This document shows, one piece after another, positions 757 through 43,377 of a DNA stretch of 64,000 nt. This DNA is from Azolla caroliniana (Eukaryota > Plantae > Polypodiophyta). The stretch is from positions 18,228,001 to 18,292,000 of the forward strand of contig JBHGNT010000012.1 in assembly GCA_043228905.1 (NCBI GenBank). The letters run 5' to 3'. Position numbers and translations under genes: made by a program. The notes beneath the pieces are model-generated. The model did not search any database. It was given only the letters and a program-made list of their open reading frames with translations, and was not told the origin of the DNA. Position 1 is the stretch's first letter, and each line of letters begins with the position of its first letter.

Positions 757-1549
757 TGTCGAGATATTACGCAAGTGCGTGTGGAAACGAGGCGGGACCG
801 CGGGGGTCTCGAACCAAAGAGCAAGCGAGGGAGGAGAAAGAGAGAGAACCGGCTACGCAGGACCGGGGATACACAGGGACACGGCCCTTCAGCACGGAGA
901 ACGCGAACAGACACCGACACAGACAGATGCGAATGACTAAATATGTATATTAACAAAAATGGCTAACACGACTACAACCCTCGATGGGGGCACAGGTTGG
1001 TTACAACCGAACAGGCCGGCGAACAAATGCCGATGCTTCTTCGCTTCGACGCACAAAGGGGCAGCAGGTCGGAGGTGCTGCCGGAAGCACTCGGGCGTTC
1101 CTCGAAACAGCGCGAGCCTCCTCGGGACCCTGCACAGAAAGCTATGGAGCTCAAGAAGGAAGGAAACAGAGAGAGAAGCGTCCAGAAACGGTCCGACAGC
1201 ACTTCGTCCTCTCTGCGCGAGATGCCTGCAACCGCTCTTTCCAGCTCCTTATATAGGCCGACGAGCAGGCCGTCATGTCAGCTTTATTCCCTGTCCCTTT
1301 CGAACAGGGATCCGCTCCGTTCTTCACGCATCCGCGTAGTTACGCCGCCGACTCGTACAGTTCCTTAGCTCGCGCGCGCGACCGAAAAGACTGTTCGCGC
1401 GGTCTTTGTCTCCACTTGTGTTAGGGCCCGTTCCTGCCGATTATCCTCCTAATTCGCTTCTATCTACAACTTGGAGCTTGCGCGCGTGAAGAACCGGTTC
1501 CCACGCCTTGGTGCGCCGATTCCGCTTATGGACGGTTTTCTTCACGACA
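757..1549 (-). repeat. 3' LTR of Gypsy B
   Basis: Matches 12654-13446; three mismatches seen (1464, 1478, 1518); adjacent PPT GGTGGGGGCGGA on the minus strand. Confidence 0.95.
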
Positions 1550-1620
1550 TCCGCCCCCACCTAACCGCGCATCCTCCGGTATGCGCCAAGAGAGTTGGGA
1601 CGGAGAAAACCGGCCCGTCT

Positions 1621-4600
1621 TCATTCCTCGCCCGTCGGTTCTTCCTCGTTTTCGGATCGTTCGTCACTGCTGACTAGGAGAGCCGGGTCTGGCTCGTCGT
1701 CGTGTCGCTTCTTGAACGTTTTGATCCGCTTCCCTGCAACCGGTATCGCCATTCTCGTGCCGTCGAGTTCCGCCAGGTGATATGTCCCGTTGTCATTGGC
1801 GCTCCGTACCACGTAAGGCCCGAACCACCTTCGTGCGAACTTCCGTGTAGCTCGGTGCTGGTTGTCGAGGCTGCTGTCGTAGACGAGCACCCAGTCACCT
1901 TCGTCGATTTTCTTCGGTCGAACCTGGCTTTGTTCTTTGTCCTCGCCACCCGGAGCTTCTCCGCAGCCAGTTCCACGTCCTCCGGTCTCCGCTCGAGCTG
2001 TCGTATACGCGCGGCCAACAACTCCTCCCGGCTCATCTCGTCCCTCCAGTCGACCGTTGCCCACGAGGAGATCGTCCGTTCCATCGGCATGATCGGCTTC
2101 TGGCCGAACATGAGCTCCGTCGGCATGTACCCGGTTACCGAACTGTGCGTGGTCCGGTCTGCCCACAAAGCATAAGGTAGCAGCCGCGGCCAGTTACCGA
2201 CTCGGCCTCCGCATGCCCGAACCAACGCCTTGACGATCGGCCCGTGTCCGCGCTCCACCTTTCCATTCGCCTCCGGATTGTACGCAGTGGTGAGCGAGAG
2301 CTTGACTCCCAGCCGGTCGAACAGCTCCGCGGCTTCTTCGGCGTCCAACTCCCCTCGGTCAGCCACGATCTTCCCGACGCACCCGTACCGGCATATCACG
2401 TCCTCGATTAGGAACCGACATACGGCCGCGGTCGTTTTGTTCGGAAGGGCCCGGCCTTCCACCTGGTTCGTCAGATCCTCCCGCGCTAGGACCAGGTACC
2501 GCATCTGTCCTACCCCCATTGGCATCATCACCAGATCTACCATCCATTTGAAGTGGATGGTCGGAGGGTACGTAGGGTGAAGCTCGTCCCGGTGTCGGAC
2601 CACGGAGTGCATCTGACAGCTCTCGCAAGTTGTCACGAATCGATGCACGTCCCGGTACAGGCCCGGCCACCAGTACTTCTCCTTTATCTTCTCGAATGTG
2701 GCCCAAGTTCCACGGTGTCCGGCCCAAGGGCTGTCGTGGTAGGCCGTCAGCAGCTCCTCCTGTTCTTCCTTCATCGCCACCACCCGGAGCGGAGCGCCGT
2801 CCCTCTTCTTCGGGTGCTTCCATAGATAGCCATCCCGGAGAAAGAACCGGTACGCTTTCTTCCGGATCCGGTTGGCCTCGTCTTTCGTCCATGACGCATC
2901 CGGCGCCATTGTCCTCAAGAACCCGCCGATCTGCAGCCACTCCTCGTCGTACTTGCTCGCGTCGAAGTCGTTAAGCGCCGGAGTGCTCGTCCCGTCGGTT
3001 GTTACGTATGCTACCTCGAAGAAGTCCACGCCGACCTCTTCGTCCTCCGAAACCATGCCGCCCTCGTCATCGAACCTCGCCCTCGAAAGCATGTCGGCCA
3101 TGGCGTTGTCTTTCCTGGAAATGTGTCGTATTTCCGGGTCCAGGGACTTGATGTACGCTATCCACCTGAGCATTGCCAGGTCCGGCGTCGCGCATCCGGA
3201 AACCATGCCGAGAATCGGCATGCAATCCGTCTCTATGATTACCTCTGTCCCGATCAGATAGTCCTTGTCGGCCTTCACCGCCGAAACGATACCCCAGAGT
3301 TCGCGTTTAACCTGGGCGTATCCTCGCTGCCGCTCACTGAGGACCTTCGCGCCGAATCGGATCGAAAACCGATTGCCGTCCTCGTCTTCTTGGTTGACGA
3401 CCCACCCGATTTCGGTCGGACTCGTGTCAACCGTTATGTACACTGGGGTGCCCTTCCTGTAGACGGCCTTTCGGAGCGCCGGTGCTGCCGAAAGAGCCTC
3501 CTTCAGCTTCCGGACCGACTCCGTGTGCTTGTCTAGCCATTCGAATCTTCGCCCTTTCTTCAATAATCCGTACAGCGGCTCCGCGACGTGCGCGTAATGT
3601 GGGATCCATATGTGGTAGAAGGCGCATGCTCCCAAGAATCTTCGTACTTCCGTGACCGAGCTGCAATCAGGCTTCATCGCGGAGATGGCTTCTACCTTTG
3701 CCGGAGACGGTTTCCGGCCATATGGTCCACATAAATGTCCGACCACCATGATTTCCGACTGCCCAAAGGCTGACTTCTCCCCCGAGAAGGTGAGCCTCGC
3801 ATCCTCTAGCCTTTGCAGCACCTTCTCGCAGTCGTCGATGTGCGTCATCACGAATCGCCGGCATCCGTCCGGCCCGATCGTCTCGTCCTTCTCTTCTACC
3901 GGGCATCCCTTGATCGGGATGTCATCTAGAAACAGCATGGTGATGTCCGGGATGCAGTCCCTCAGCACCTTGTTCATTGCATTCACCATGTGGGCCACCG
4001 AGTTGGTCCCTCCTTGCGGCAGCGTACACATCCGCACTAGGCCGAGGGGAGTTCGCATCGTCGTAATGTCTCTGCTCTCCACGGCTAGCTGGAACTGGTC
4101 GTACCCTGAGTATAGATCACCGACCGAGTAAATCGACCTTCCGGCGAAGGCCTCCGCGAACTTGTCTATGGTCGGTCTGATCCCTGCGTTCCGAATGGTC
4201 ACTCTGTTGACCGGCTGCAGGTCCTGAATGAAGCGCAACGATCCGTTTTTCTTTGGTACTGTAAACCATCGGTTTGAATATGGGGCGCTCGACGGCTCGA
4301 GAATGCCCATATCAACTTTCTGCTTCAACAGCTCCATCAACTTCGGGATGTGAGCTCTTGGAACCGGAATTGGCTTGAGATTCCACGGTACATGCGGTAC
4401 CGTGAATATCACCATTGGCTCTACGATCGTCGGGTCTACGCACCCGATTTCCTCCGGTGAGAATGCGAAGGCTTTCCCGTGCCTTCCGAGCATTCTCCGA
4501 AACCGGTCTTCCTCCACCGGCAGTAGGAACCCGCCCCCACCGATCTTCAGCTCGCGGAGCGTCTCGTTGGTGAAGGCGTGTCCTATGCAGGCCGGATCTC

Positions 4601-5083
4601 GTAAGCTGGGGTCCGATGCAACCCCTTTGATTCGGGATTCGCTGCCCTCCGGTAAGGGCGCCGCAACTGGCCTCACCTTCCGGTCCACAGTCTTGTACTT
4701 GGTGCTAACTCGGGCCGTCCGTTCCGACTCGAGCCCTCGACCGAAGTCCGCGATGACTTCGTACATTTCTTCGGAACATACCGGTATCGTCCGGTCTTCG
4801 TTAAGGTCTTCTTCGACTACCTTCCCCAGCATTCCCAAGGTGTCGTCGAAGGAGACTGCCTCCACGGCTCCGTCGATTTCTTCGTCAGGGCCGAGAACTC
4901 CGCACGCCCGAAGTCTCCCCTCCGTCTTTGTTTTCTCTCGGCCGGCGATGCCGACCATCGTACATGCTCCGCTGTCAGAGAAGCAAAATTTCCTACCTAT
5001 TGTACACGGTTTTATCGTACAGATGTGGGGTTTTCCCGGAGCATCCAGACTGTCGCGGCCCCACGCCTTGGCAGTCCTCTCTA
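1621..5083 (-). CDS. pol: Gypsy B pol (RT-RNase H-integrase), probably reached by -1 frameshift; small frameshifting deletion near 1915 in the integrase C-terminus
   Basis: ORF 1674-4958: RT DLYSGYDQ, LPQG, FLDD; RH TVDTS, ETDC, ADMLSR; INT HHCC and D-D-E (MVD, VAD, KVE); GPY tail in ORF 1621-2166. Confidence 0.92.
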
Positions 5084-5479
5084 AAAATCCTCTCGGTTTT
5101 CGGAACCGAGGGAGTCGCGGTTACGTTCGTGGTTCGGCCGTACCGTCAGAAACTGGACCGAATGGCGCCCGTCTTGGCTTTTGACCCTCGCGTAGGCCGA
5201 ACCATTGTCCAGCACCTTGGTCTCCATTCGTGCCGCCGTGATGTACGGCTCTCCCAGTATGACCGGATGCGAAGACGTCTCCTGCACGAAGAAGTGCTGG
5301 TCAATCTCGACGTCGCCGATCTTGACTCGCACATTCGGACAGGCCCCGTGCAGTTCCTCGGTGGCGCGCGTTGCTGCCCTTATTTTCCACCCGTGCTTGG
5401 TGTTGATCGGCCATTTGCCCTTCTTATAGAAGTCCATGGACATCAAATTGATCTCCGATCCGTGGTCCACCAAAGCTAT
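5081..5479 (-). CDS. Gypsy B aspartic protease, end of the Gag-PR ORF, cut off by Copia C
   Basis: ALVDHGSEINLM..VILGEP..REDF-stop; continues the frame of 10882-12636. Confidence 0.88.
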   Translation of the reverse strand: MALVDHGSEINLMSMDFYKKGKWPINTKHGWKIRAATRATEELHGACPNVRVKIGDVEIDQHFFVQETSSHPVILGEPYITAARMETKVLDNGSAYARVKSQDGRHSVQFLTVRPNHERNRDSLGSENREDF

Positions 5480-6148
5480 TGTTGGGATTTCGGTCCCTCC
5501 GGATGGGATGTCCGGAGATGAATGACGGCAAGCCCGGTTGCGGTTACGGAGCCGGATGACGAATGTACCCGGAGAGAGATCCGGATGACGGCAAGCCCGG
5601 TTCCGGTTACGGAGCCAGATGATGAAGACCCTGGCTACGGAGCCGGATGCTGAAGACCCCGGTAACGGAGCCGGATGACGAATGTACCCGGAGAGAGATC
5701 CGGATGCGGGGACATATTTGTGAATATGTTTTGCCAAGAGCCCTTGAGGCTATATTTGTAAATAGCCCGAAAGTCATATGTGTATAAATATGACTTAGGG
5801 CAAACAGTTTAAATGTTGTTGCTCATTTTATGTTTTCAGCCGAGAGAGCGAAGTGAGAGCAGCCGAGAGAGGGAGAGAGAGAAAGGAAGAGGTCAACGCC
5901 TCTGTGTATTACCGCCGCCTGTGGCGAAGACAGTGAGCTCAAGGTTGTTGCCTTGTAGCTTCACCATTGTACATCTCAGTGTATAGTGATAGTTGGAGTT
6001 TGAGGACTCCCGTGGTTTTTCCCATTTAGGGTTTTCCACGTAAAATTCCAGTGTACCTTTTCTCTCTACTGTCCTCGTGCACTTTGTATTTCCCAATTTC
6101 TGTGAGTTGATCCTATTCCTCGGTTGTGGCCGAGCACTGTTTATATCA
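5480..6148 (+). repeat. 5' LTR of Copia C, with CCGG-rich short repeats near its 5' end
   Basis: TG..CA; recurring GGAGCCGGATGA and CCCGGTT units at about 5510-5705. Confidence 0.96.
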
Positions 6149-6179
6149 GAGTGGTATCAGAGCGACGGTAACACAGAAA

Positions 6180-7145
6180 ATGGAAGGCGGCGGTAGTGGG
6201 CCTCCGGGCATGATGGTGTTGAACTCACAGAACTACGCCGACTGGAAGATAAAGATGGAAGACCTTCTCATCGTCCGAGACCTGTACGAACCGATCGACA
6301 ATGCCGAGATACCCAAGGGAGTAATAGAGTCGGAGTGGAAGCTCCTGAACCGGAAAGCCGTAGCGACGATTCGGCAATATGTCGATGTAAGCGTCCTACA
6401 ACATGTGGCGAACGACACCAACGCATATGAGATGTGGAAGAAGCTGTCGGGCCTCTACGAGAGGAAGAATGCGTTGAACCGGACCTCCCTGATGAGGAAG
6501 ATAGTGAACCTCAAGTACCGGGACGGCGAGAATATGGTGGAACACGTGAGCACGTTCATGGGATTCGTGAACCAGCTTGCGGCGATCAAGTTCCCGTTGG
6601 AGGATGCAATGCAAGCCATCATTCTGATGTGTACATTGCCGGAAAGCTGGGAGAACTTGGTGGTGACTCTCAGCACCTCCTGCACCGAAGATAACTTGTC
6701 TTTACAAACGGTAAAGACAAGCATTTTGAACGAAGAAGCGCGTCGGAGAGATAAAGAACCGGTTTCCGATCCGAAGATGCTGCTTACCGAATCGGATCGG
6801 GGAAGACAATGGAACCGGAGTCCGCAAAGACGGGAGAAGTCGGGGACCCGGTCGCAGTCAAGAGGAAGGCCCACGTGCTTCCACTGTGGGAAGCCGGGGC
6901 ACTTCCGGAAGAATTGTCGGCATTACCGAAAGGACAACGGAGCCGACGACACCGATTCGAAGAAGTCACCGGAGAGAAACGGTGCATACCGGGGAGCCAC
7001 GGACCGGAGAGGTCCGGATCGGCGAGGGAAGGACCGGAAGGGAACGACGGCACTCGTGGCAAGTGAAGAAGAAATAATGCTCATTACCGAAGAGAGGGAG
7101 CTGAACCTTGCCGGTGAAATACTTCTCATCCTACACAGCCGGTGA
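6180..7145 (+). CDS. gag: Copia C Gag with CCHC zinc knuckle; runs out of frame at the protease deletion
   Basis: CFHCGKPGHFRKNC; terminal ILLILHSR is off-frame relative to A. Confidence 0.92.
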   Translation: MEGGGSGPPGMMVLNSQNYADWKIKMEDLLIVRDLYEPIDNAEIPKGVIESEWKLLNRKAVATIRQYVDVSVLQHVANDTNAYEMWKKLSGLYERKNALNRTSLMRKIVNLKYRDGENMVEHVSTFMGFVNQLAAIKFPLEDAMQAIILMCTLPESWENLVVTLSTSCTEDNLSLQTVKTSILNEEARRRDKEPVSDPKMLLTESDRGRQWNRSPQRREKSGTRSQSRGRPTCFHCGKPGHFRKNCRHYRKDNGADDTDSKKSPERNGAYRGATDRRGPDRRGKDRKGTTALVASEEEIMLITEERELNLAGEILLILHSR

Positions 7146-10100
7146 GCACGGCTGTGTCCGGATGGGAAATGAAGGTACGTGCCGGATTGCCGGCATAGGA
7201 CACGTGTGGCTGATGACATCAACCGGATGCAAGATGCTGTTGAAGGATGTGCGACACGTTCCGGAGGTCCGATTGAACCTGATCTCGGCCGGGAGGCTAG
7301 ATGATGAAGGCTACACGGGTAGCATCCGGAACGGTGTCATGAAGTTCAGCAAGGGGAGCTTGATAGTGGCTCGGGCCCGGAAGGTCAACACACTGTACCT
7401 GATGAATGCCTGGTTATGTCCGGAAGAGCTGAATGTGGCAGCCGACACTGCCGGTGAGCTGTGGCACAAGAGACTGTGCCACATGAGTGAGAAGGGGATG
7501 AAGAGGCTTGCAGAAGACAATCTTATTCCAGTGAAGCATGTGCACCTGGAGAAGTGCACCGATTGCCTGGCCGGTAAGCAGAACCGAACCTCCTTCCATT
7601 CAAGGCCACCGACGAGACGTAGCGCACCATTGGAGTTGGTGCACACTGATGTGTGTCAAGTAGAAACGAAGTCACATGGCGGAGCCCAGTACTTCGTAAC
7701 ATTCATTGATGATCACAGCCGGAAGCTGTGGACGGCACCGTTGAAGACAAAGGACCAAGTGTTGTGCGTCTTCAAAGAACTCCACGCGAGAGTGGAAAGG
7801 GAATCCGGCAAGAAGCTGAAAGCGATACGAGCGGATAACGGAGGGGAATACCGGGGGCAGTTCCAGGAGTACTGTCACTCGAAGGGAATCCGGCTCGAGT
7901 TTACTGTGCCGAAGACGCCGGAACTAAACGGGCTGGCCGAGAGGATGAACCGGACCATAATGGAGAGGGTCCGGAGTATGCTGGCACATGCAAAATTACC
8001 CAAGGGGTTTTGGGCTGAGGCAATGTCGACGGCGACATACGTGATAAACAGATCACCCTCAGTACCTTTGGACGGAGACACGCCGCAGAGAGTGTGGACC
8101 GGTAGGGAAGTATCCTACCGGCATCTGAAGGTGTTCGGGTGTCTCGCATACGTGCATGTGGCAAAGGACCGGAGAGGAAAGTTAGATCCAAAGACCCGGC
8201 CATGCATATTCCTCGGTTACGGCAACGACGAGTTCGGCTACCGAGTATGGGACCCGGTCGACAAGAAGATATTCAGGAGTCGTGATATCATCTTCATGGA
8301 GAACAAGACACTCGCCGACTGGGAGTCGGAGAAGAAGATGAAGAGCTCCAAGTTGACCGGTGAGGATAAACTCTACGAGGAGCAGTCCCGACCGGCGAGG
8401 GACCGGTTAACACTCGAAGATCCGGCCGTAGACGGTGAAGAAACAGAACCGGCCGAAGAAGAGGAAAATGATACCGGAACCGGCCCCGATCCCGAAATGG
8501 ATTCGGATGAAGAAGAATCGGAAGAACCGGTTACCGAAGCTCCGGAACGGAGATATCCTCTAAGAGAGAGAAGGGCCCCCCGGAGATTTCCGGAACCAGA
8601 GCACGTGCTGCTAACCGACGAGGGGGAGCCGGAGAGCTTTGAAGAAGCAAAACATGACATCCAGAGCCGCAGGTGGTTGAGTGCCATGCAGGACGAGATG
8701 GATTCCCTGCATGAGAACCACACATATGAACTTGTGGAGTTGCCGAAAGGAAAGCGGGCACTTCGAAACAAGTGGGTGTTCAAGCTGAAACCGGGAGATG
8801 CCGGAAACCCCCCGAGATACAAAGCCAGGATCGTGGTGAAGGGGTTTCAGCAGAAGAAGGGCGTCGACTTCGACGAGATATTTGCCCCAGTAGTGAAGAT
8901 GACCTCCATCCGGACGGTGCTGAGCATAGCGGCAAGCATGGACCTCGAGGTAGAACAGATGGACGTGAAGACGGCATTCCTTCACGGTGACCTCGAAGAA
9001 GAGATCTACATGCAGCAACCGGAAGGATTCGAGAAGAAAGGGAAGGAGCACCTGGTATGCCGGTTGAAGAAGAGCCTTTACGGACTGAAGCAGGCTCCCC
9101 GGCAATGGTACCGGAAGTTCGACTCCTTCATGACCGACGAAGGGTACCTCAAAACGCAGTCCGACCACTGCGTGTTTGTGAAGAAGTTCGAAGGAGGAGA
9201 CTTTCTAATACTCCTCCTGTACGTGGACGACATGTTGATCGTCGGATGGGACCAGGTCAAGATACGGATGCTGAAGAAGGCTCTTCACCGAACCTTCTCA
9301 ATGAAGGACCTGGGTCCGGCGAGGCAAATACTAGGGATGCACATCATCCGGGACCGGAAGAAGAAGCAGTTGTGGCTGTCACAGGAGAAGTACGTGACGA
9401 AGGTGCTTCACCGGTTCAACATGTCGGAAGCAAGACCGGTCGGATCGACCCTCCCGGCAAACTGCAAGCTGTCCAGCAAGCAAAGTCCCAAGACAAAGGC
9501 TGAAAAGGAGGATATGATGAAAGTGCCGTATGCCTCAGCCGTCGGGAGCTTGATGTACGCCATGGTGTGTACGAGACCGGACATAGGATATGCAGTCGGA
9601 GTGGTGAGCCGGTACATGAGCAATCCCGGCAAAGAGCATTGGAACGCGGCCAAGTGGATACTCCGATACCTGAAGGGCACGACAAACGTGTGCCTCCGAT
9701 TCGGCTCCGGCAAGCCCGAACTCGACGGCTTCACCGATTCGGATATGTCGGCTGATGCAGATACCAGCCGGTCCACATCAGGGTATGTGATGACGTATGC
9801 AGGGGGAGCTGTTTCATGGCAGTCGAGACTGCAGAAGACGGTTGCGTTGTCAACCACGGAGGCGGAGTACATGGCGGCTGTTGAAGCCGGCAAGGAAATA
9901 ACATGGATGAAGGACTTCAGTAGAGAGCTCGGTATCCGGCAGGAGGAGTACCGGCTCTACTGCGACAGTCAGAGTGCAATCCACCTTGCGAAGAACGCGG
10001 CCTATCACTCCCGGACGAAGCACATCCAGCGAAGATATCACTGGATCCGGGAAAGGATAGAAGACCAGGAGTTCATGCTGACGAAGATCCACACGGACGA

Positions 10101-10197
10101 GAACGGCTCAGATATGCTGACCAAAGTGCTCACACCCGACAAGCTGGAAGCATGCCGGAAGAGGATCGGATTGGAGAGACATCCCATGCCGAAGTGA
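7118..10197 (+). CDS. pol: Copia C pol (PR remnant, integrase, RT, RNase H); open but out of frame with gag
   Basis: WHKRLCH..CTDC; VHTD, RADNGGEY, NGLAER; RT YVDD; RH TDSD, EAEY, DSQSA. Confidence 0.93.
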
Positions 10198-10207
10198 AGG
10201 GGGAGTT

Positions 10208-10876
10208 TGTTGGGATTTCGGTCCCTCCGGATGGGATGTCCGGAGATGAATGACGGCAAGCCCGGTTGCGGTTACGGAGCCGGATGACGAATGTACCCGG
10301 AGAGAGATCCGGATGACGGCAAGCCCGGTTCCGGTTACGGAGCCGGATGATGAAGACCCTGGCTACGGAGCCGGATGCTGAAGACCCCGGTAACGGAGCC
10401 GGATGACGAATGTACCCGGAGAGAGATCCGGATGCGGGGACATATTTGTGAATATGTTTTGCCAAGAGCCCTTGAGGCTATATTTGTAAATAGCCCGAAA
10501 GTCATATGTGTATAAATATGACTTAGGGCAAACAGTTTAAATGTTGTTGCTCATTTTATGTTTTCAGCCGAGAGAGCGAAGTGAGAGCAGCCGAGAGAGG
10601 GAGAGAGAGAAAGGAAGAGGTCAACGCCTCTGTGTATTACCGCCGCCTGTGGCGAAGACAGTGAGCTCAAGGTTGTTGCCTTGTAGCTTCACCATTGTAC
10701 ATCTCAGTGTATAGTGATAGTTGGAGTTTGAGGACTCCCGTGGTTTTTCCCATTTAGGGTTTTCCACGTAAAATTCCAGTGTACCTTTTCTCTCTACTGT
10801 CCTCGTGCACTTTGTATTTCCCAATTTCTGTGAGTTGATCCTATTCCTCGGTTGTGGCCGAGCACTGTTTATATCA
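10208..10876 (+). repeat. 3' LTR of Copia C
   Basis: Matches 5480-6148. Confidence 0.96.
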
Positions 10877-10881
10877 GCTAT

Positions 10882-12636
10882 CACCGGTTCCTGGACATCG
10901 CCGATCTTCACCGGGGTTTCCGTGGTCGCTCGGGCCCAGTGTGGTCTCGAATAGTGGCTTTCCGCCCACTCGTCTCCTAGCGCCATGTCGTCTAGGTGCG
11001 TCGTCCGCAATTCCACCGGTCTTTCCGGTTCTGTCTCCGTTGACAGCCTCTTCCGTTTCACCAAGTCCACGATGGAGTCGTTGAACTCCTTCTTGGCGAT
11101 TCCCAGCACCTCTCGTAACGACAGCTCCACCTTGCTGTCGAGGATCCGTTCCTCCAGGACCTTTCGTAAGTCCGTGGTCCTTTCTATCTCCGTCCCCAGA
11201 CGGTACCCGCCCTTCTGGGGTTTATCTTGCGTACCGGCCCCGCCGGCTTCGTCCCGTCGTGGCCCGGACCGGGTCTCGTATCGTTGTGAGGGCCCGGTCG
11301 TCCCGGGTTTCCCCACCCGCTTCTCTTCTACCAGAGCCTCGTAGTTCTGGCAAGCGGCTTCCACGAAGCCCGTCTTTTCCTCGACCGGGTCGCTCCACCC
11401 GGTCATCTCCCGTACCCGTTTCTCCGCACGGTCCGATTCCTCCCTTTTAAGCCTTGCACCGGCAAGGCCTTCCAGCATCGTCGGCCAGAATCTGGCTTTG
11501 CTTTCCCTTCGGGCCTCGCCGCCCCCGACTCGAATGCCGGCCGACGCCGAGTAGTGGACGGTTTCCGCGTGTCGGGCCGCCGCCTCTTCCATCAACCTTT
11601 TCATACCACCTCGCCCGTCGTTTCGGCTCAGGGCCCTTCGGGTGTCGCTGGCATGCACCCGTCCTTCCCACAGGTACACCACCCTGTTCCTCAGCGCCTC
11701 CGCGAAGTCGCCAGAGTCCTTCCGAATGTGGCCGACTTCATCGCACCACATGCACCTGTTTCCTGCCGCCGGCCGTCGGTCACGAGCCGGTTCGCCACCT
11801 TCCCTTCGGGCTTGCGCGATTTGGAGGTCTTTCATCGCCCTCGTCAATTCCTCCAGCACCGCTCCTCCGATTGAGCCTCTGACTACGCCGGTCGAAGCCG
11901 AACCGGTTTCCAACCACTCTCGGGTCTCTTCCTTTCGCACCTGTGGCGCTGGTTCGAGCTTCCTTGCTGCGACCGAGCCCGACCCGGTTGCCCCGTTATC
12001 CGCCCATTCTCGCCGTTTGTCGAAACGGCCACAGACTTTCTTGACAGCCGCCCAGTCGGTAGTGAGCCCGTCTTCGGTTTCCAGCAAGAGGCCCACTTGC
12101 TCCCGATCCCGCTCGTCGACCGACTTGACAAACAGCAAGACCCGGCTCGTGTCCAGGATGGTTCGGTCGAGCGCCGAAAGGCGCGCAAAGTTTTCCTCGA
12201 ACTCCCGGAGGAGTGCCGACGCGTTTCTTCCCTTCCCCGGGGACTCCACCCATTCCATGAACCTTCGCTTCGAAAGCCGGAGCGCGTCGTCCAGCCCGTA
12301 TTTCTCTAGGAGCCGACCTTCGAACTCCTCCCAGGTACGGCTCTCCGCCCGCACCTCGAGCACCTCCGCATGGATGCTCGGCATCGCCACTCGGGGAAAT
12401 CCGGCAAGACGCCTTTCTTCCGGAATGTCCCGCATCAGCATCTCTGCACCGTAGGACGCCAAATACTTCGTGGCATCCTTCCCATCGAACCAGCCGATCG
12501 TGCCGACGACCGCCTCAATAGCTCTGTCGAGGGCACCGGTGCCCTCGCGCGCGTTTACAATCCGATCCACGGCCGAAGCCATGGCCTCTGCAAGATCCGA
12601 CCCCCTCATCTTCTGCTCTTCAGCCGCCTCCTTCAC
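10882..12636 (-). CDS. gag: Gypsy B Gag, interrupted just before the protease active site
   Basis: FDGKDATKYL; knuckle CMWCDEVGHIRKDS with the last Cys replaced by Ser; homologous to gag of D, E and K. Confidence 0.88.
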
Positions 12637-12649
12637 GTCGGGTTCACCA
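12633..12649 (-). promoter_or_regulatory. Primer-binding site (tRNA-Trp) of Gypsy B
   Basis: TGGTGAACCCGACGTGA, complementary to the plant tRNA-Trp 3' end as I recall it; same motif at 27439-27455 (-) and 31099-31115 (+). Confidence 0.88.
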
Positions 12650-12653
12650 AAGA

Positions 12654-13446
12654 TGTCGAGATATTACGCAAGTGCGTGTGGAAACGAGGCGGGACCGCGG
12701 GGGTCTCGAACCAAAGAGCAAGCGAGGGAGGAGAAAGAGAGAGAACCGGCTACGCAGGACCGGGGATACACAGGGACACGGCCCTTCAGCACGGAGAACG
12801 CGAACAGACACCGACACAGACAGATGCGAATGACTAAATATGTATATTAACAAAAATGGCTAACACGACTACAACCCTCGATGGGGGCACAGGTTGGTTA
12901 CAACCGAACAGGCCGGCGAACAAATGCCGATGCTTCTTCGCTTCGACGCACAAAGGGGCAGCAGGTCGGAGGTGCTGCCGGAAGCACTCGGGCGTTCCTC
13001 GAAACAGCGCGAGCCTCCTCGGGACCCTGCACAGAAAGCTATGGAGCTCAAGAAGGAAGGAAACAGAGAGAGAAGCGTCCAGAAACGGTCCGACAGCACT
13101 TCGTCCTCTCTGCGCGAGATGCCTGCAACCGCTCTTTCCAGCTCCTTATATAGGCCGACGAGCAGGCCGTCATGTCAGCTTTATTCCCTGTCCCTTTCGA
13201 ACAGGGATCCGCTCCGTTCTTCACGCATCCGCGTAGTTACGCCGCCGACTCGTACAGTTCCTTAGCTCGCGCGCGCGACCGAAAAGACTGTTCGCGCGGT
13301 CTTTGTCTCCACTTGTGTTAGGGCCCGTTCCTGCCGATTATCCTCCTAATTCGCTTCTATGTACAACTTGGAGCGTGCGCGCGTGAAGAACCGGTTCCCA
13401 CGCCTTGGTGCGCCTATTCCGCTTATGGACGGTTTTCTTCACGACA
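12654..13446 (-). repeat. 5' LTR of Gypsy B
   Basis: Next to the PBS; TATATAAG on the minus strand near 13150. Confidence 0.95.
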
Positions 13447-17612: not shown

Positions 17613-20306
17613 TGTACGACGAATTCGACCAGATGTTTAGTCGTCTCCCCAATACGAACCAAGTGTTGCTTGAAGAGGACAAGACTTTGTACTTCTTGAA
17701 GGTCGTGGACATAAAGGATAGACGGGAGTTGGGGACTCTTCTTTAAGATGATACCCAAGCAAATGGGCTCGTAGCGGACTGGATCGCGGTGAAGCGGGCA
17801 TGCAATAGGCTCGACAACCGTCGCCAATGGGTTGATGACACCGACTTGACGGGACCGACTACCACGGAGAAAGCAAGACCGCCGAAAGTAGCTGAGCCGC
17901 TGAGACAAAGTAACGTGGAAGAAAAGAAGATTGATGACGACATCATTGAAGAGCTAGCGAAGAAGTTCGAGAAGGTCATGCTAGCCAACATGAATCGTCG
18001 AGGCCCTAAAGGAAAAGAACCCTTTAGATGCATGTGGTGCGATAGCATGGACCACATGAGAAGGGATTGTGCGAGCCTTCGAGAGGCGATTCGACAAAAT
18101 ATCGTATACATAGAGGACAACATGATCTGCTCAAGCGAGACTAGAAGACCCCTACGGGTGAATTTCGGAAGAGGAGGAATGAAGAAATCTATGGAGGATG
18201 CTGATGCGACTCATGTGGATGCGATGCACTATGCTGCGTCGGCCGGAATAAGAGTCGGGAAAGACAAGACTGAAGCTGCTAGAGCGGGAGCAAAGTTTTG
18301 GACTTCCGTTCTCGAATATGAGAAGAAGGGAAAAGTCACATCGAACGAGGTAGAGCTTGCGGACCGAAACATGCAAAGCATAACCGGGTGGTCGGATCCG
18401 GTGGACGACAACACCATACTCGCAGAGGTGATGTGCGACAACCACGAGGTGTTCGTCGAAGAAAAGAGAAAGAGAATAGAAGAGCAAGGGCCATCAAAAA
18501 GACATGAAACAAGGAACGCGAAAAAGAAGGACGATGCGGAGATGAGTCGACCTTTACAAACGGAGGAACGAGAATCAAGCCGAAAAGGGGAGCCGAGCAT
18601 ACGAGTTGAAGAAACGGTTCGGCCCGTGAAGGTTGGTGTCGAGGACCCCGCTCGGAGGACAAGGACCATACCTACCTATAAGCTAAGGTCGGACATAGAG
18701 CAGACGACGGACCTAAAGAAGATTCTCGAAGAACGAGTTCGTGATAGCCACGTAACTTTGTCCTTGAGGGAATTGCTTGGCATTACGAAGAAGGAGTTCC
18801 ATGACACGATCGTGGACCTTGTAAAGAGAAAGAGACAACAATCGGACGAGGAAGAAGAGAAGCCGCAAAAAGCAAAAACGAATGCCATAACGATGGCAAG
18901 AGACGAAATCGATGAAGATATGGTGGACAGCCACTACACTCGACCTCATTGGGCACGAGCGACAACGGAGACGCCGGTGAAGATCGGGGAGAAGAAAGAG
19001 ACCGTCGTAGCCTTGATCGACCACGGCTCGGAGATCAACCTCATGTCAACCGACTTCTACAAAAAAGGAAGATGGCCAATCAATACAAACCACGGATGGA
19101 AGATTCGCGCGGCAACAAAGTCTACGGAGGACTTGTACGGAGGTTGTCCCAATTTCAAAGTCACGATCGGGGATGTGGAGATGGATCAACACTTCTTCGT
19201 ACAAGAATCGGCGTCGCATCCTGTCATCCTAGGGCAACTTTATATCACATCATCTCGGATGGAGACCAAAGTGTTCGATAATGGAGCAGCCTTCACACGA
19301 ATAAAGAGTCTTGACAACCAAAGATCGGTCCAATTCCTAACAGTGCGAGCCAATCATGAAAGGAATCGAGATAGTCTCGGAGGCGAATCCTCGGATTTTT
19401 AGAGCGGACTATTGAAGCATGGGGGACAAATAGTCCGAGCAATCACAAGACCCCACAAGAAAGAAGAGTGTGTGGATTGCAAGGAGAAGCAACATGTGTC
19501 ACACCTAGTGGCGCATGTAAACTAGTACTACCTGACAAGAAGCACAAGCGCCGGATACAAGAATTTGAGAAGATGCTGAAAGAAGAGAATATAATAGAAG
19601 AAGGAGAGTTCGTGACTCATATTATGGAAGAAGCCTCATTTAACGACACCATCGGCGAAATCGAGGACGTCGTGGACTTGAGCTATCTTCACAACCAACG
19701 CGTGATTTCGGTTAACTCTGTCAACATGTATGCTATCATCGATGAATACCGTCGTGGCATCTCGATGAAGGAAGCTGACATCAACACGAAATATAAAACG
19801 GTGGATAAGAAGATCAAGCCAGTTGCGGTTCCGCTACCGGAAGATAGCTGGCAAAAGATGAAGGAAGTCGCTAACGATCCAAGCTTAAGAGATCCGAAGA
19901 AGATAGGTCATGACTTCCCTAAAGAGATGAAGGGGAAGCTACGAGTTGGAAAGGAGGATTTCCTTCTCCCTGAAGAGGAGCGAATGTTTCGCGATATGCT
20001 TAAGAGACATGGGAAGGCTTTCGCATTCTTCCCACGAGAAATCGGATGCGCCGACCCAAAGGTTATAGAGCTGACGGTGATCTTCACGGTGCCTCATGTG
20101 CCTTGGAACTTAAAACCGATACCGGTTCCGAGAGCACACCTTCCGAAGCTGATCGAGCTCTTAAAGGAGAAGGTGAGTATGGGAATTCTAGAACCGTCGA
20201 ATGCTCCTTATTCCAATAGGTGGTTCACGGTGCCGAAGAAGAATGGATCATTGCGATTCATCCAAGATCTTCAACCCGTCAACAAGGTGACAATTCGAAA
20301 TGCCGA
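17613..20306 (+). mobile_element. Gypsy D internal fragment (gag 3' part, PR, start of RT); same family as E, opposite orientation, 3'-truncated
   Basis: ORF 17789-19402 (CMWCDSMDHMRRDC, LIDHGSE) and ORF from 19468 (RT start to TIRNA), then abrupt junction. Confidence 0.92.
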
Positions 20307-20413
20307 AAATCTTCACACTATTGCCGAAAATCTTCACGACATCCACCCCCACCAAACCGCAAGTCCTCCGGTACGTGCCAAGAAGAGAGAAAGTGAGATT
20401 TCAGCTACGGTGA

Positions 20414-23400
20414 TCAATTAGATTCCTCCATGTCTTCATTTACATCCTCCCTATTATGTTCATTGTCGAGGTGATCGAGGTTAGGATCCTTGTCTTGTCT
20501 TCTCTTGAAAATCTTTACTCTTTTTCCCGCAATGGGTACGGCCAACCTTGATCCGTCTAGTTCCGCAAGGTGGTATGTGGCATTATCGTTGGCACTTGTC
20601 ACCACATATGGCCCGAACCATCTTCTTGCGAACTTCCTTGTTGTACTGTGTTGATTGTCAAGGGTGCTATCGTAAACCAAAACCCAATCCCCTTCTTCAA
20701 TCTTCTTGGGACAAAGTCGATGCGTGTTGTCGAACTGAACTTTGTTCTTTACTCGAGCTGCCTCCATCATCTTTCGCGCTTTTTCTAAATCTTCAAGTCT
20801 TCTTTCAAGCTGCCTTATCCGCGCCGCCAATAACTCTTCTCGGCTCATCTCGTTCTCCCACGGTATCGCTACCCATGAGCGATCGTCCTTTCGATGGGCA
20901 TAATCGGCTTCTGTTCATACATAAGCTACGTCGGCATATACCCTGTCACCGAGCTATGTGTCGTTCTATCGGCCCACAAGGCATAGGGTAATAGTCGTGG
21001 CCAATTCCCGACTCGACCATTTCATGCCCGTACGATGGCTTTAACGATAAGTCCATGCCCTCGCTCGATCTTCCCATTCGCTTCCAGATTGTAGGCAGTC
21101 GTGAGGGAGAGCTTCACGCCTAGTCTTTCGAAGAGCTCCATCGCTTCGTGCGCGTCCAACTCCTCTCGGTCGGCCACTATCTTCCCTACACATCCATATC
21201 GGCAAACAACCTCTTCAAGCAGAAATTTGCAAACAGCTGAAGTCGTCTTATTTGTCAAGGCTCGTCCTTCCACTTGATTTGTCAAGTCTTCCCTTGCCAG
21301 CGCTAAGTACTTCATTTGTCCCACTCCCATTGGCATCGAGACCAGATCCACCATCCATTTGAAGTGTATGGTGAGTGGGTATGTCGGTTGTAACTCATCA
21401 CGATGACATATATTTGAATATACTTGGCAAGTTTCGCATGTGGACACGAAATGGAGTACATCTTTGTACATGCTTGGCCACCAGTACTTCTCCTTCAACT
21501 TTTCGAACATCGCCCATGTTCCTCTATGACCTGCCCAAGCACTTTCGTGGAATTCGGTCATCAGCGTCTCTTGCTCTTCTTTCTTTACCACCACTCGACG
21601 TGGTATTCCTGTCCTTCTTTTTGGATGTCGCCAAAGGAATCCTCCCTTCAAGAAGTATCGGTAAGCTTTCTTTCGGATTCGTAGGGCCTCCTCCTTTGTC
21701 AATGAAGCATCTGTCGTCAATGTTCTTAGGAATCTACCGATGAGTAACCACTCTCCTTCGTACTCGTTCTCGTTGAAGGCGTGGAGGGTTTGCGTGTCCT
21801 GGTCTTCCGCCGACAATCAAGCCATCTTGAAGAAGTCGAGGGCGACATCTTCATCTTCCGAAACCATGTTACTTCCATTTGAAAATCTTGCCCTCGAGAG
21901 CATGTCAGCCATGGCGTTCTTCTTCCCTGCAATGTGACGGATCTCTAGGTTTAAAGACTTGATGTAGGCGATCCACCTTAACATAGCAAGATCTGGGGTC
22001 GCACATCCCGAGACCATTCCGAGAATTGGGAGACAATCTGTCTCTATTATCACTTCTGACCTGATCAGGTAATCTTTGTTCGTCTTTATTGCCGACACAA
22101 TACCCCAAAGTTCCCGCTTGACTTGGGCATATCTTTGTTGTCGTTCGCTGTGAACCTTTGCTCCGAACCGGACGGCATATCGCGCATTATCTTCACCTTC
22201 TTGATTGATGACCCACCCGATTCCGGTTGGGCTCGTATCTACGGTCACGTAAATTGGTTTCCCTTCGGCATAGTCGGCCTTCCTTAGTGTCGGAGCTTCA
22301 AGAAGCAGTTTCTTTAATCTTCGCATCGCATTTGTGTGCTCGTCTCGCCATTCGAACTTCATTCTTTTCTTTAGTAGTCCATATAACGGTTCGGCGACAT
22401 GAGCGTAGTGAGGAATCCATATATGATAAAACGCGCACGCTCCAAGGAACCTTTGAACCTCTGTTTGGTTTTCGCATTCTTCTTTCATGTCTTGTATTGC
22501 GTTCACTTTGGATGGCGAGGGCTTCCGGCCATATGCTCCACACAAGTGACCTACCACCAAGATCTCTGGTTGCCCGAATGCGGATTTTTCTCCCGAAAAT
22601 GTCAAATTCGCATCTTCCAGCCTTTGAAGCACCTTCTCGCAATCTTTCATATGATCCGCAACGAACTTTCTACAACCTTCCTTATCTTTCGATTCATCTT
22701 TCTCCTCATCCGAACATCCTTTTATCGGAATATCATCCAAGAATGGCATCGTGATGTCCGGGATGCAATCCTTCAAGACTTTATTCATGGCATTCACCAT
22801 ATGAGCCACCGAGTTTGTTGCGCCTTGGGGTAAGGTACACATCCGCACAAGCCCGATTGGAGTCCTCATGGTTGTAATGTCCCGACTGTCGATCGCCAAT
22901 TGGAATTGGTCATATCCGGAGTAGAGATCGCCAATGGAGTAGATGGACCGGCCTGCAAACGCTTCAACAAATTCGTCCACGCTTGGACCGATTCCGGCAT
23001 TTTGAATTGTCACGTTGTTGACGGGTTGAAGATCTTGGATGAATCGCAATGATCCATTCTTCTTTGGCACCGTGAACCACCTATTGGAATAAGGAGCATT
23101 CGACGGTTCTAGAGTTCCCATACTCACCTTCTCCATTAAGAGCTCGATCAGCTTCGAAAGGTGTGCTCTCGGAACCGGTATCGGTTTCAAATTCCAAGGC
23201 ACATGAGGCACCGTGAAGATCACCATCGGCTCTATAACCTTTGGGTCAGCGCATCCAATTTCTCGTGGGAAGAATGCGAAAGCCTTCCCATGTCTCTCAA
23301 GCATATCGCGAAACATTCGCTCCTCTTCAGGGAGAAGGAAATCCTCCTTTCCAACTCGTAGCTTCCCCTTCGTCTCTTTGGTGAAGACATGACCTATCTT

Positions 23401-23900
23401 CTTTGGATCTCTTAAGCTTGGATCGTTAGCGACTTTCTTCATCTTTTGCCAGCTATCTTCCGGTAGCGGAACCGCAACTGGCTTGAACTTCTTATCCACT
23501 GTTTTATATTTCGTGTTGATGTCAGCTTCCTTCATCGAGATGCCACAACAGTATTCATCGATGATAGCGTACATGTTGATGGAGTTAACCGAAATCACGC
23601 GTTGGTTGTGAAGATAGCTCAAGTCCACGATGTCCTCGATTTCGCCGATGGTGTCGTTAAATGAGGCTTCTTCCATAATATGAGTCACAAACTCTCCTTC
23701 TTCTATTATGTTTTCTTCTTTCAGCATCTTCTCGAATTCTTGTATCTGGCGCTTGTGCTTCTTGTCGGGTAGTACTAGTTTACATGCGCCACTAGGTGTG
23801 ACACATGTTGCTTCTCCTCGCAACCCACGCACTCTTCTTTCTTGTGGGGTATTGTGATTGCTCTGACTATTTGTGCCCCATGCTTCAATAGTCCGCTCTA
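20414..23900 (-). pseudogene. pol: Gypsy E pol (RT-RH-INT) with stops and frameshifts
   Basis: ORFs 21817-23832, 21022-21816 and 20414-20848 collinear with B pol. Confidence 0.9.
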
Positions 23901-24298
23901 AAAATCCGAGGATTTGCCTCCGAGACTTTCTCGATTCCTTTCATGATTGGCTCGCACCGTTAGGAATTGGACTGATCTTTGGTTGTCAAGACTCTTTATT
24001 CGTGCGAAGGCTGCTCCATTATCGAACACTTTGGTCTCCATCCGAGATGATGTGATATAAGGTTGCCCTAGGATGACAGGATGCGACGCCGATTCTTGTA
24101 CGAAGAAGTGTTGATCTATCTCCACATCCCCGATCGTGACTTTGAAATTGGGACAACCTCCGTACAAGTCCTCCGTAGACTTTGTTGCCGCGCGAATCTT
24201 CCATCCGTGGTTTGTATTGATTGGCCATCTTCCTTTTTTGTAGAAGTCGGTTGACATGAGGTTGATCTCCGAGCCGTGGTCGATCAAGGCTACCACGG

Positions 24299-25596
24299 TG
24301 TCGCGAAAATACGACAAGGATACGTGAACGTTGAGGCAAGACCCCAGGGCCTTTGTCTAGAGGATATCAAATTCGTGTATTTATATACTAAGAATTAACC
24401 GAAATGAGAAAGATTAACAAATTTCATTAATAAAAGGGAAAGAAAGATTACAATCAATCCCAAGATTGGGATTACAAAAGTTTTATCTTATGGAGATGAT
24501 TAGAATAATAGATAACAGGAAATAAGAGATTATGATTCTTGAGTGATATGGCTTTGACAAGGAATTTTGGATTTTGAGAGATTGCTTCCGTATGGAAATT
24601 ATGGTTTACTTGAGAGATAGCTTCCGTAGGGAAGATTAGGGTTATTGGCTTCGATAAGATAAGAGAGCTCCCCAACAAAAGAAAAAAAAATTTAGATAAT
24701 ATGGAGAGTGAGTCCTAGTGTAGGAAAAAAAATGGAATAAATATGGAGTTCTCCCTTGATCATAGCCTTTCCACTTTTTGTTGCATGGCCTCTACTTTTA
24801 GTTGCCTAGCTTTTTCTTTTGGTTGCATGTGACTGTCCACATGACCTTTACTTTTTCCATGCACTCCTTCTTTAGTTGCTTGCGTCCACATGGCCTTTAC
24901 TTTAGTTCTCTTCACTTTACTTTATTTTGTTGCATGATCCAATCTTTCGTCCGTCCGTGTCCAACCTCGTCCGGTAGCCGGTTCCATTTTGCTTGCCGGT
25001 CGGTTCCGGTTCCGATTTTGCTTTCCGGCCGGTTCCGGTTTGCTTGCCGGTTCCGGTTCCAGTTTTGCTTGCCGGCCGGTTACGGTTTTGCTTACCGGCC
25101 GGTTTCCGGTTTTGCTTGCCGACCGGTTCCGGTTTTGCTTACCGGCTGGTTCCGGTTCCGGTTTGCTTGCCGGCCAGTTCCGGTTTTGCATACCGGCCGG
25201 TTTTCGGATTGCATACCGGCCGGTTTCCGGATTTGCTTACCGGACCTGTTTTCCGGATTTGCTTACCAGCCGGTTTCCGATTTTAGGGAATTTGGCCACC
25301 ATCATCCATCAAGACAAAGTGGCCAAAGTGCTCTTAGCACAAATGAAAAATGAGGGAGCTCAAGGTGTTTATATAGCCAGGGCCTTAACTTTCCTATCTA
25401 TGTAGGATAGTTCTAATTTCCCTATCTAATCAAACTTTATTTTCTCATAACTTGATATGTATTTCTCCATTTTGTATATAGTAAAATACATTTTGAAGCT
25501 CTTGAGTATATCCATCTTTCTATAGTAAGCTACTAATCTAATCTATAATAATTATTTCATTATTTTTTTACATAGTGTGTGAAGATTCACACGACA
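24299..25596 (-). mobile_element. Solo LTR (1298 bp) of another family of the same Gypsy group, inserted in E
   Basis: TGTCG..CGACA ends; TSD ACGG at 24295-24298 and 25597-25600; no PBS, PPT or coding sequence; E frame continuous across it; TATA on the minus strand near 25370. Confidence 0.92.
24970..25280. repeat. CCGG-rich minisatellite inside the solo LTR
   Basis: Repeated CCGGTTCCGGTTTTGCTT-like units. Confidence 0.9.
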
Positions 25597-27463
25597 ACGG
25601 TCTCTTTCTTCTCCCCGATCTTCACCGGCGTCTCCGTTGTCGCTCGTGCCCAATGAGGTCGAGTATAGTGGATGTCCACCATATCTTCATCGACTTCATC
25701 TCTTGCCATCGTTATGGCATTCGTTTTTGCTTTTTGCGGTTTCTCTTCTTCCTCATCCGATTGTTGTCTTTTTCTCTTTACAAGGTCCATGATCGTGTCA
25801 TGGAACTCCTTCTTCGTAATGCCAAGCAATTCCCTCAAGGAAAAAGTTACGTGGCTATCAAGAACTCGTTCTTCGAGAATCTTCTTTAGGTCCGTCGTCT
25901 GCTCTATGTCCAACCTTAGCTTATAGGTAGGTATAGTCCTTGTCCTTCGAGCGGTCTCTTCGACACCAACCTTTACGGGCCGAACCATTTCTTAACTCAT
26001 ATGCTCGGCTCCCCTTTTCGGCTTGATTCTCGTTCCTCCGTTTGTAAAGGTCGATTCGTCTCCGCATCGTCCTTCTTTTTCGCGTTCCTTGTTTCATGTC
26101 TTTGTGATGGGCCTTGCTCTTCTATTCTCTTTCTCTTCTATGCTCTTCGACGAACGCCTCGTGGTTGTCGCACATCACCTCTGCGAGTATGGTGTTGTCG
26201 TCCACCGGATCCGACCACCCGGTTATGCTTTGCACGCTTCAATCTGCAAGCTCTACCTCGTTCGATGTGACTTTTCCCTTCTTCTCATATTCGAGAATGG
26301 AAGTCCAAAACTTTGCTCCCGCTCTAGCAGCTTCAGTCTTGTCTTTCCCGACTCTTATTCCGGCCGACGCAGCATAGTGCATCGCATCCACATGAGTCGC
26401 ATCGGCATCCTCCATAGATTTCTTCATTCCTCCTCTTCCGAAATTCACCCATAGGGTCTTCTAGTCTCGCTTGAGCAGATCATGTTGTCCTCTATGTATA
26501 CAATATTTTGTCGAATCACCTCTCGAAGGCTCGCACAATCCCTTCTCATGTGGTCCATGCTATCGCACCACACACATCTAAAGGGTTCTTTTCCTTTAGG
26601 GCCCCGACAATTCATGTTGGCTAGCGTGACCTTCTCGTACTTCTTCGCTAGCTCTTCAATGATGTCGTCATCAATCTTCTTTTCTTCTACGTTACTTTGT
26701 CTGGGCGGCTCAGCTACTTTCGGCAGTCTTGCTTTCTCCGTGGTAGTCGATCCCGTCAAGTCGGTGTCATCAACCCATTGGCGACGCTTGTCGAGCCTAT
26801 TGCATGCCCACTTCACCGCAATCCAGTCCGCTACGAGCCCATTTGCTTGGGTATCATCTTCGAGAAGAGTCCCCAACTCCCGTCTATCCTTTATGTCCAC
26901 GACCTTCAAGAAGTACAAAGTCTTGTCCTCTTTAAGCAACACTTGGTCCGTGTTTGGGAGACAACTAAACATCTGGTCGAATTCGTCGTACACCCTCAAG
27001 ACGCTCATCTTCTTATTCTTCTTCTCTATCCACTTCATCATGGCATGTCGAGTCATCCTCGTTGAGTCTTCAGCCACGAACTCCGCTAGTACCGTTTTCT
27101 TGAACTCGGACCATGTTGTCTTACCTTCTTGAAGCTCGATGACACATCTTTGGATGTTGTTGGCGACAACTCTCTTGAAGCTTGCGATTTGACGTGCCTC
27201 GGACACGTCCCTCTAATTCATCTCCCTTCTATATGCATCAAGGAACTTCGTAACGTTCCTTCCATCGAATTGGCCCTCGAGCTCTACGACACGCAACCTA
27301 CTCCACGCTCGCGTCGTTGTCCTGAGATCTCATCATTTGCTCAACGATTAGCATCATCCTTTCGAGCTCTCCCACTTGGTTGCTTGAGGACGCCATCTCC
27401 AAGTATTAATCTCGACTTGATCCTTCCTACCGCCTCTTTCACGTCGGGTTCACCACTTAATTA

Positions 27464-43010: not shown

Positions 43011-43377
43011 AGTGTAGCCCAAGTCACCTTGAACATTCTATGCTCCACACATTAATAAAATGAACATGTTTTGGTTTCCCTTATATATCATGGGTTCCAA
43101 TGTTGTCCTATCTATGTGGGATATCTCATAGTTTTGTCTTTTCTTTCTTCTTCAAACTTTACACTCACATAACTTGATACTTGTTTATACGTTTCATGCG
43201 TAGTAAAATACACTATGAAGCTCTTGAAGACGTCTATCTATATGAATACATTAAGCTAATCTTAAATAATTGTTTTACTAGTTTTCATATCGTGTGTGAA
43301 AAACCACACGACATTCACCCCCACCAAACTTGCACATCCACCGGTATGTGCCAATTGTGGTGAGGTTCCTCTTTTAA

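Follow-up and report, generated by a model that had tools for sequence, protein, structure and literature searches.

How does a retrotransposon translate its reverse transcriptase when the frame that encodes Gag and protease closes on a stop codon ahead of it? The question is raised five times over by a 64,000-nucleotide (nt) stretch of the fern Azolla caroliniana (contig JBHGNT010000012.1, positions 18,228,001 to 18,292,000; below, "the window" means this whole stretch), in which five copies of a Ty3/gypsy element, here called B, D, E, I and K, hold Gag-protease (Gag-PR) in one open reading frame (ORF) and reverse transcriptase (RT) in another. The original prediction was that a G_GAU_UUU heptamer and an H-type pseudoknot behind it form a functional -1 frameshift element. 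The data outlined below make programmed -1 frameshifting at this heptamer, stimulated by the pseudoknot, very likely as the mechanism, and suggest that one pair of sister families may have turned the same pseudoknot to a -2 shift.

Within the window, the string GGATTTTTAR occurs six times against 0.45 expected, a count to which none of 100 shuffles rose. Five of the matches are junction copies, at 5090 (-), 19393 (+), 23907 (-), 40605 (-) and 46833 (-); in each, as had been claimed, the protease-coding frame terminates D-F-stop on G GAT TTT TAG/TAA, and RT lies in the -1 frame. That frame is open for 1138 codons in B, 696 in E, 342 in D, 153 in K and 73 in I, which bears out the claim that it runs on into pol in B and D, with the homology of copy D to pol stopping at 20308, after 305 codons. 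The features of the junctions are as follows.

17747 to 19402, plus strand: Gag-PR frame of copy D, 551 codons open, ending D-F-stop; the protease domain, bearing a D-H-G motif, makes up its final ~134 residues
19393 to 19399, plus strand: slippery heptamer G_GAU_UUU of copy D, in Gag-PR phase, the stop codon (19400-19402) directly after it
19405-19413 with 19429-19437, plus strand: stem 1 of copy D, beginning 5-6 nt past the heptamer
19420-19424 with 19451-19455, plus strand: stem 2 of copy D (loop 1, 6 nt; interstem, 4 nt; loop 3, 13 nt)
19393 to 20308, plus strand: truncated pol of copy D, read in -1 and made up of a ~130-codon linker followed by the first part of RT
5025 to 5090, minus strand: signal of copy B (heptamer 5090-5084, then the stop; stem 1, 5077-5072 with 5052-5047; stem 2, 5064-5059 with 5030-5025)
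1677 to 5090, minus strand: pol of copy B (RT, RNase H [RH] and integrase [IN]), 1138 codons open in the -1 frame
23845 to 23907, minus strand: signal of copy E, one stem 1 mismatch, 696 codons open in -1
40562 to 40605, minus strand: signal of copy I, a fragment with heptamer and stem 1 retained and stem 2 decayed
46770 to 46833, minus strand: signal of copy K with both stems; element 50506-41365, target site duplication (TSD) ACGT, protease and pol frames broken

These copies are instructive, within limits. All five are real, and D is 95-97% identical to E, being a partial (truncated) inverted copy of it, so they amount to about four independent versions; over the 240 bases before the site, similarity is 83% between K and D or E, and 65-69% between B or I and the remaining copies. 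Stem 1 is as first described except for one mismatch in E and a G-U pair at the base in B, and the proposed pairing between loop and downstream strand stands in B, D, E and K; copy I has no good stem 2, its best helix reaching -1.8 kcal/mol against a mean of -8.9. None is intact: B has a Copia insertion in its protease and E a solo long terminal repeat (LTR), in K the protease frame is broken and pol contains stops, and only fragments are left of D and I. Thus, function must be judged from relatives.

Relatives were fetched with an alignment of 34 protease-bearing sequences, the junction not being a selection criterion, and we kept 82 loci: the best 80 of 168 metagenome relatives and 2 from genome contigs. 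The heptamer lies in phase as GGATTTT in 66, GGATTTC in 4, GGGTTTT in 1 and GGTTTTT in 2; in the other 9 the contig end is reached or there is no in-frame heptamer, L009 being among them through a changed first G. Altogether, G_GAU_UUY or G_GGU_UUU is found in 71 of the 82, that is, an X_XXY_YYZ heptamer (with the G_GA variant allowed) in the phase of the upstream ORF. Among the 62 loci matched to pol, 57 are open in -1 back over the Gag-PR stop, forming an overlapping -1 ORF without a start codon of its own; pol is open in +1/-2 in 2, and the linker of the remaining 3 is interrupted by stops. Where Gag-PR has at least 600 open codons and pol at least 1000 (n = 27), the offset is -1 in 26 and +1 in one, and no locus has a single ORF. 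The two ORFs overlap by 13-124 nt, and the first Met of the pol frame is scattered from codon 8 to codon 146; there is thus no shared pol start. No relative was found in the viral contigs scanned. Two of the loci, L081 and L082, are plant-type retrotransposon fragments within cyanobacterial or Streptomyces genome records, which are probably contamination.

Is the heptamer kept for the residues that it encodes or for its nucleotides? In an RT tree of 36 rows (pol ORFs under 560 codons and duplicates omitted), the long-pol loci fall into 21 families with 65-89% RT identity. We compared 21 representatives of -1 families, comprising L068, L069 and 19 of the 21 tree families. At its first base, which is a third codon position, the heptamer has G in 21/21 across ten encoded residues; G stands at 35% (557/1585) of comparable protease third positions, and the bases just 5' of the heptamer vary freely. 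Proteins tell the same story. Among 120 homologous proteins listed of 143, with 33 set aside for lacking the motif or ending otherwise, 82 of 87 with full ends close on x[DG]F, on x[DG]F plus five residues, or on xVF plus one; the residue before the motif is one without a G-ending codon in 0/82, compared with 197/656 further upstream. More distant protein representatives likewise end in D-F, G-F or N-F. This pattern indicates that the heptamer is conserved for its nucleotides. Downstream, linker identity between families is 28%, and the ratio of nonsynonymous to synonymous substitution (dN/dS) in the -1 frame is 0.36-0.47 (three pairs), values that indicate purifying selection on a divergent linker read in that frame. 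In one branch (L068, L069, L079 and proteins P0038-P0061, P0085 and P0104, including Physcomitrium patens and Adiantum), the stop comes five codons past the heptamer, within stem 1.

The covariation of the stems, first noticed among the window copies, holds in a wider alignment of 55 junctions that is nearly free of gaps and omits duplicates and a few near-copies. Stem 1 is paired in 96.1% of cells, and six of its eight pairs have changed on both strands; its covariation score was reached by 0 of 500 shuffles, controls slid along the alignment pair in 38-47%, and its distance of 5-6 nt from the heptamer falls within the canonical 5-9 nt. A stem 2 helix of at least 5 bp can be formed in 50/55 (shuffled mean, 30; maximum, 39), at a mean energy of -8.9 versus -4.6 shuffled. 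Held to a single fixed register in all 55, stem 2 has 74% of its cells paired and shows double changes at 5/6 pairs; in 12 rows it is 94% paired, and divergent families alter both sides together. Where a family has an unusual loop, the best partner of that loop is mostly the family's own downstream strand.

Gag-protease and RT-RH-integrase are two overlapping frames, and the layout, the frame offset, the conservation of the heptamer and the covariation of both stems are direct observations. We posit the following model, in which -1 frameshifting joins these frames. Most ribosomes would terminate at the stop right after the heptamer, or in some families five codons further on, and so set Gag-PR free. 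The remaining minority would stall at the predicted pseudoknot 5-6 nt downstream; there, the Asp and Phe tRNAs would slip back by one base (GAU to GGA, UUU to UUU), and the slipped ribosomes would read through the fast-evolving linker, about 125-150 codons, into RT. In this model, the protease is made at Gag levels and RT/IN at low levels, with Gag-PR in excess and Gag-PR-Pol rare. The slip, its rate and the role of the pseudoknot, rather than stem 1 alone, as stimulator are what we infer from the sequences; the frameshift element originally predicted has held in the wider sample at every sequence-level point, from which a -1 product would follow.

Could stem 1 be the sole stimulator, the pairing of loop and downstream strand being incidental or serving RNA dimerisation or packaging? 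RNAalifold and single-sequence folds, which cannot model pseudoknots, recover stem 1 alone, and stem 2 is a helix of 4-8 bp in a variable register that is absent from the copy I fragment. Against this, stem 2 shows changes on both sides in divergent families with wholly different sequences (L061, L069, L077, L079, L044 and L052), and it lies mostly 10-16 nt past stem 1, the geometry of an H-type pseudoknot. We regard stem 1 acting alone as improbable.

Splicing in the manner of Ogre, in which part of the transcripts would lose the Gag-PR stop and fuse protease to RT, is a highly improbable alternative. It has a precedent in Ogre itself, with GAG-PROT and RT in separate ORFs and a partly spliced intron, according to the accessible part of the REXdb paper (PMC6317226), and gene predictors use introns to bridge the frames in Physcomitrium and Riccia models. 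In these elements, the ORFs overlap by those 13-124 nt rather than being spaced apart, no conserved GT donor is present within 60 nt upstream (best offset, 8/21), and splicing leaves unexplained both the invariant heptamer and a frame that is open from the heptamer on. A spliced pol transcript had been named in advance as a result that would refute frameshifting. In three polyA runs from a related organism, of which roughly one-eighth each was sampled (143, 90 and 188 reads placed), the copy B junction is covered to a depth of 8-19 with no splice joint and no listed indel. Since the reads fall on both strands, this is weak evidence against splicing or slippage and no proof of expression. Membership in Ogre, defined by nonoverlapping ORFs and a spliced spacer, is ruled out by the overlap and the lack of RNA joints. 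A separately made pol (by subgenomic RNA or re-initiation), or a frame corrected by polymerase slippage on the T run, is very unlikely as well: it has no direct evidence, and while the shallow RNA data leave room for a rare transcript, there is no shared pol start codon, the reads show neither a start cluster nor an indel at the site, the T run is just 4-6 long, and it is broken by TTC in four loci.

Several observations weigh against programmed -1 frameshifting with a pseudoknot stimulator, and they deserve to be set out together. Seventy-seven of the 80 metagenome loci share one assembly-name type, many are near-copies, and their hosts may be few. The zero-stop counts follow in part from the preference for long pol ORFs among the representatives. 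There are also eight longer proteins that fuse PR to RT, all of them Riccia gene models (P0146-P0153) with mutually different junctions that are probably predicted introns. A distant protein, P0184, runs from PR into RT unbroken. As for the RNA structure, the covariation shuffles and counts ignore relatedness, the 12-sequence test of stem 2 used rows picked for a common register, and pairing falls to 74% across all 55 because the length of loop 3 varies. In a reverse test, 3 of 10 divergent families (L041, L069 and L075, with copy I set aside) were not distinctive, more than half of the modal loops pairing with their downstream region as well as or better than their own loop does. Loop 1 (4-6 nt) and the interstem (0-4 nt) exceed those of compact viral pseudoknots; for a long loop 1 and an interstem of up to 4 nt, the accessible part of a 2016 review gives precedents in the Visna-Maedi virus and lactate dehydrogenase-elevating virus (LDV) pseudoknots (PMC5009743). 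Finally, the RNA reads are shallow, come from another organism and lie on both strands.

Does the system always shift by -1? The sister families L044 and L052, nested among the -1 families (bootstrap, 100%; RT, 86.6% identical; DNA, 77.5% identical), raise a different prospect at the following junctions.

L044, positions 2497 to 2560: L044 junction
L052, positions 2835 to 2900: L052 junction

Both read AG_GUU_UUU, then one codon, then the stop; their spacer is 5 nt, versus 6 nt to the same column in the -1 families, and both pseudoknot stems are present, with compensatory changes. Pol is open in the +1/-2 frame for 1106 codons in L044 and 1181 in L052, and a stop ends the -1 frame immediately or five codons on. 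Between the two, dN/dS is 0.04 in the protease, 0.25 in the linker and 0.07 in RT-RH-IN, which indicates that pol is under purifying selection in this pair. Proteins ending in Q-V-F-D (six among 15 listed of a 35-member cluster) and in Q-V-F-Y (two of a 4-member cluster) occur, the rest being fragments that end elsewhere; these protein ends, together with the selection, make a one-off assembly error unlikely. On DNA, the pol frame is seen in L044 and L052 only, and gag of L052 is broken upstream. When four DNA runs were compared with L044, contigs crossed the junction in three with no indel listed there, a weak result, and their loose ends resemble L052.

We consider it moderately likely that L044 and L052 use a natural, RNA-structure-driven tandem -2 shift in a retroelement. 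Two coupled changes would have produced it: G_GAU_UUU became AG_GUU_UUU, on which the A-site tRNA would find a perfect match in -2, and the spacer was shortened by one base. The -2 offset could also be reached by two successive -1 slips; a +1 slip in the P site fits L052 poorly, as it would move the tRNA from UUU to UUG. In the accessible text of PMC3458567, -2 shifting is optimal with spacers 1-2 nt shorter than those for -1, and the available part of the review (PMC5009743) cites phage Mu, arteriviruses and Trichomonas virus 1 as -2 cases. As far as the consulted portion of PMC4937337 goes, GG_GUU_UUU is the -2/-1 site of arterivirus nsp2, stimulated by protein. L044 and L052 both have an RG_GUU_UUU site of this type with the downstream ORF in -2, resembling arteriviruses in the GUU_UUU core after a purine and G, in a -1 frame that is shut at once or within five codons, and in the shared rule that a shorter spacer favours -2. 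They differ in what stimulates the shift: the arterivirus signal, in the same portion, involves no RNA structure and depends on nsp1beta, PCBP and a C-rich motif, and a covarying pseudoknot stands 5 nt downstream in L044 and L052, whose junction sequence lacks the C-rich CCCANCUCC motif bound by nsp1beta and PCBP. If the -2 shift is real, the pair would be an evolutionary demonstration of a spacer-tension rule known so far from engineered reporters. With the same pseudoknot behind another site and spacer, the direction of frameshifting is directly testable against the -1 families.

What is it that the Gag-PR stop closes? The protease of copy D was modelled with a pLDDT of 69; Foldseek matched the model at probability 1.0 to the Ddi1 RVP domain and to XMRV PR, and its VIA Z was 10.2 (root mean square deviation, 3.1; 103 aligned). 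The model indicates a retropepsin fold for the domain before the stop. No sequence match was found in the PDB, and the Pfam matches were weak only (E 0.046-0.099), so that the protease was identified via its fold. Its catalytic motif, D-H-G (window 19019-19030) and not the usual D-[ST]-G, is invariant in the 34 aligned sequences.

Which elements are these? The rows that bear on their identity, besides that of copy K, are the following.

757 to 13446, minus strand: whole element of copy B; LTRs 13446-12654 and 1549-757, TSD CCGT, primer binding site (PBS) 12649-12632
24299-25596: solo LTR upstream in copy E, TSD CCGT

The copy B LTRs are 793 bp with three differences, and the element measures 7,288 bp minus its Copia insertion; copy K is 9,142 bp. 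The duplications CCGT (B), ACGT (K) and CCGT (solo LTR in E) are all of the 4-bp NCGN type. In pol, where RT, RNase H and integrase were found, there was no family match to a chromodomain or an aRH. In B and E the LTR end gives way to a PBS that starts with TGG and is putatively complementary to tRNA-Trp; 42 of the 82 loci contain a match to its core, of which one is spurious. The homologues with species names are from the moss Physcomitrium patens (as gene models), the liverwort Riccia sorocarpa and the fern Adiantum nelumboides, a range that makes a non-seed plant the probable host. In the accessible part of the REXdb paper (PMC6317226), Phygy has a 4-bp NCGN TSD, a tRNA-Trp PBS, a length of 7.7-10 kb (copy B falls slightly below) and a polyprotein organisation given as not determined. 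The copies fit Phygy-like elements, Phygy being a lineage of Ty3/gypsy outside the chromoviruses, by the features described, namely, TSD, similar size, domains (neither chromodomain nor aRH) and homologues in Physcomitrium patens; they differ from Phygy as listed in having homologues that reach a liverwort (Riccia) and a fern (Adiantum), and in an organisation that REXdb leaves undetermined. TatI, which shares a 4-bp TSD and tRNA-Trp, was rejected: it has an aRH between protease and RT, and the 140-residue linker here has no Pfam match at E 0.1.

The neighbourhood of these copies has features of its own. The Copia element in the copy B protease (5480-10876) is young, with LTRs 99.85% identical and TSD GCTAT, and its gag and pol occupy separate overlapping ORFs (6111-7145 and 7105-10197). 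Copy D (17613-20308) lacks the solo-LTR insertion of E and adjoins E (20300-27290) at the 3' LTR start, an arrangement that suggests local rearrangement. GC-rich tandem repeat arrays lie in the K LTRs (41494-43313 and 48499-50506) and in the E solo LTR (24977-25284), copy number varying between LTRs. The sixth match to GGATTTTTAA, at 36055 (-), was dismissed as chance, as it sits in AT-rich repeat DNA with 38 open codons before it and 8 after. The region 35498-37020 is AT-rich and like a miniature inverted-repeat transposable element, with nested inverted repeats, ~50-nt repeat units and weak, subthreshold Rfam scores for miRNA precursors. An Rfam scan of the window gave six subthreshold matches, none at a junction, and no tRNA genes were found in the window.

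Where does this leave retroelement recoding in plants? Pseudoknot-driven -1 frameshifting is common in animal retroelements. Plant retroelements are mostly single-ORF, according to the accessible text of PMC5580714, and the 2016 review, in the part available, knows, from a 2003 survey, only two types of plant element whose gag and pol stand in separate frames, each of them +1 (PMC5009743). The consulted part of the REXdb paper has overlapping frames only for GAG/PROT (Tcn1, Selgy and part of SIRE) and no lineage in which GAG-PROT overlaps RT-RH-INT (PMC6317226). A search of titles and abstracts, with subscription journals largely outside its coverage, returned no description of the -1 or the -2 signal, nor is the signal mentioned in the accessible parts of PMC12786077, PMC7466625, PMC11963269, PMC12885004, PMC2864245 and PMC10508981. 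If the mechanism is as we propose, a -1 pseudoknot signal would fill the "not determined" organisation of a non-seed-plant lineage whose families stand at 65-89% RT identity. It would also explain the introns that gene predictors invent at the PR-RT junction, and, for research on translation in plants, it would supply a recoding signal that is endogenous and comes as a natural variant series.

The closest comparisons draw on different systems for different parts of the signal. Ogre and Retand (Tat) likewise keep GAG-PROT apart from RT-RH-INT, by a spliced spacer in Ogre and a single stop codon in Retand; both carry an aRH, whereas here the frames overlap and no aRH was found. As in alpharetroviruses, which have the protease at the Gag end, Gag-PR is followed by pol in -1; alpharetroviruses are an unrelated lineage, so this layout is convergent. 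Rous sarcoma virus, in the accessible part of the review, shares both the -1 gag-pol shift and a pseudoknot stimulator (PMC5009743) and differs in its heptamer, its fold and its lineage. The heptamer itself has its counterpart in plant viruses: the same part of the review describes G_GA slippery sites in use in umbraviruses and dianthoviruses (PMC5009743), in keeping with the match originally claimed to the slippery site of the dianthovirus red clover necrotic mosaic virus (RCNMV). With RCNMV and RNA2 of pea enation mosaic virus (PEMV), our elements would share a relaxed G_GA heptamer, a nearby stop and plant ribosomes (PMC5009743, accessible part); those viruses pair a bulged stem-loop with a distant 3' loop, whereas here a local two-stem pseudoknot would do duty in a retrotransposon.
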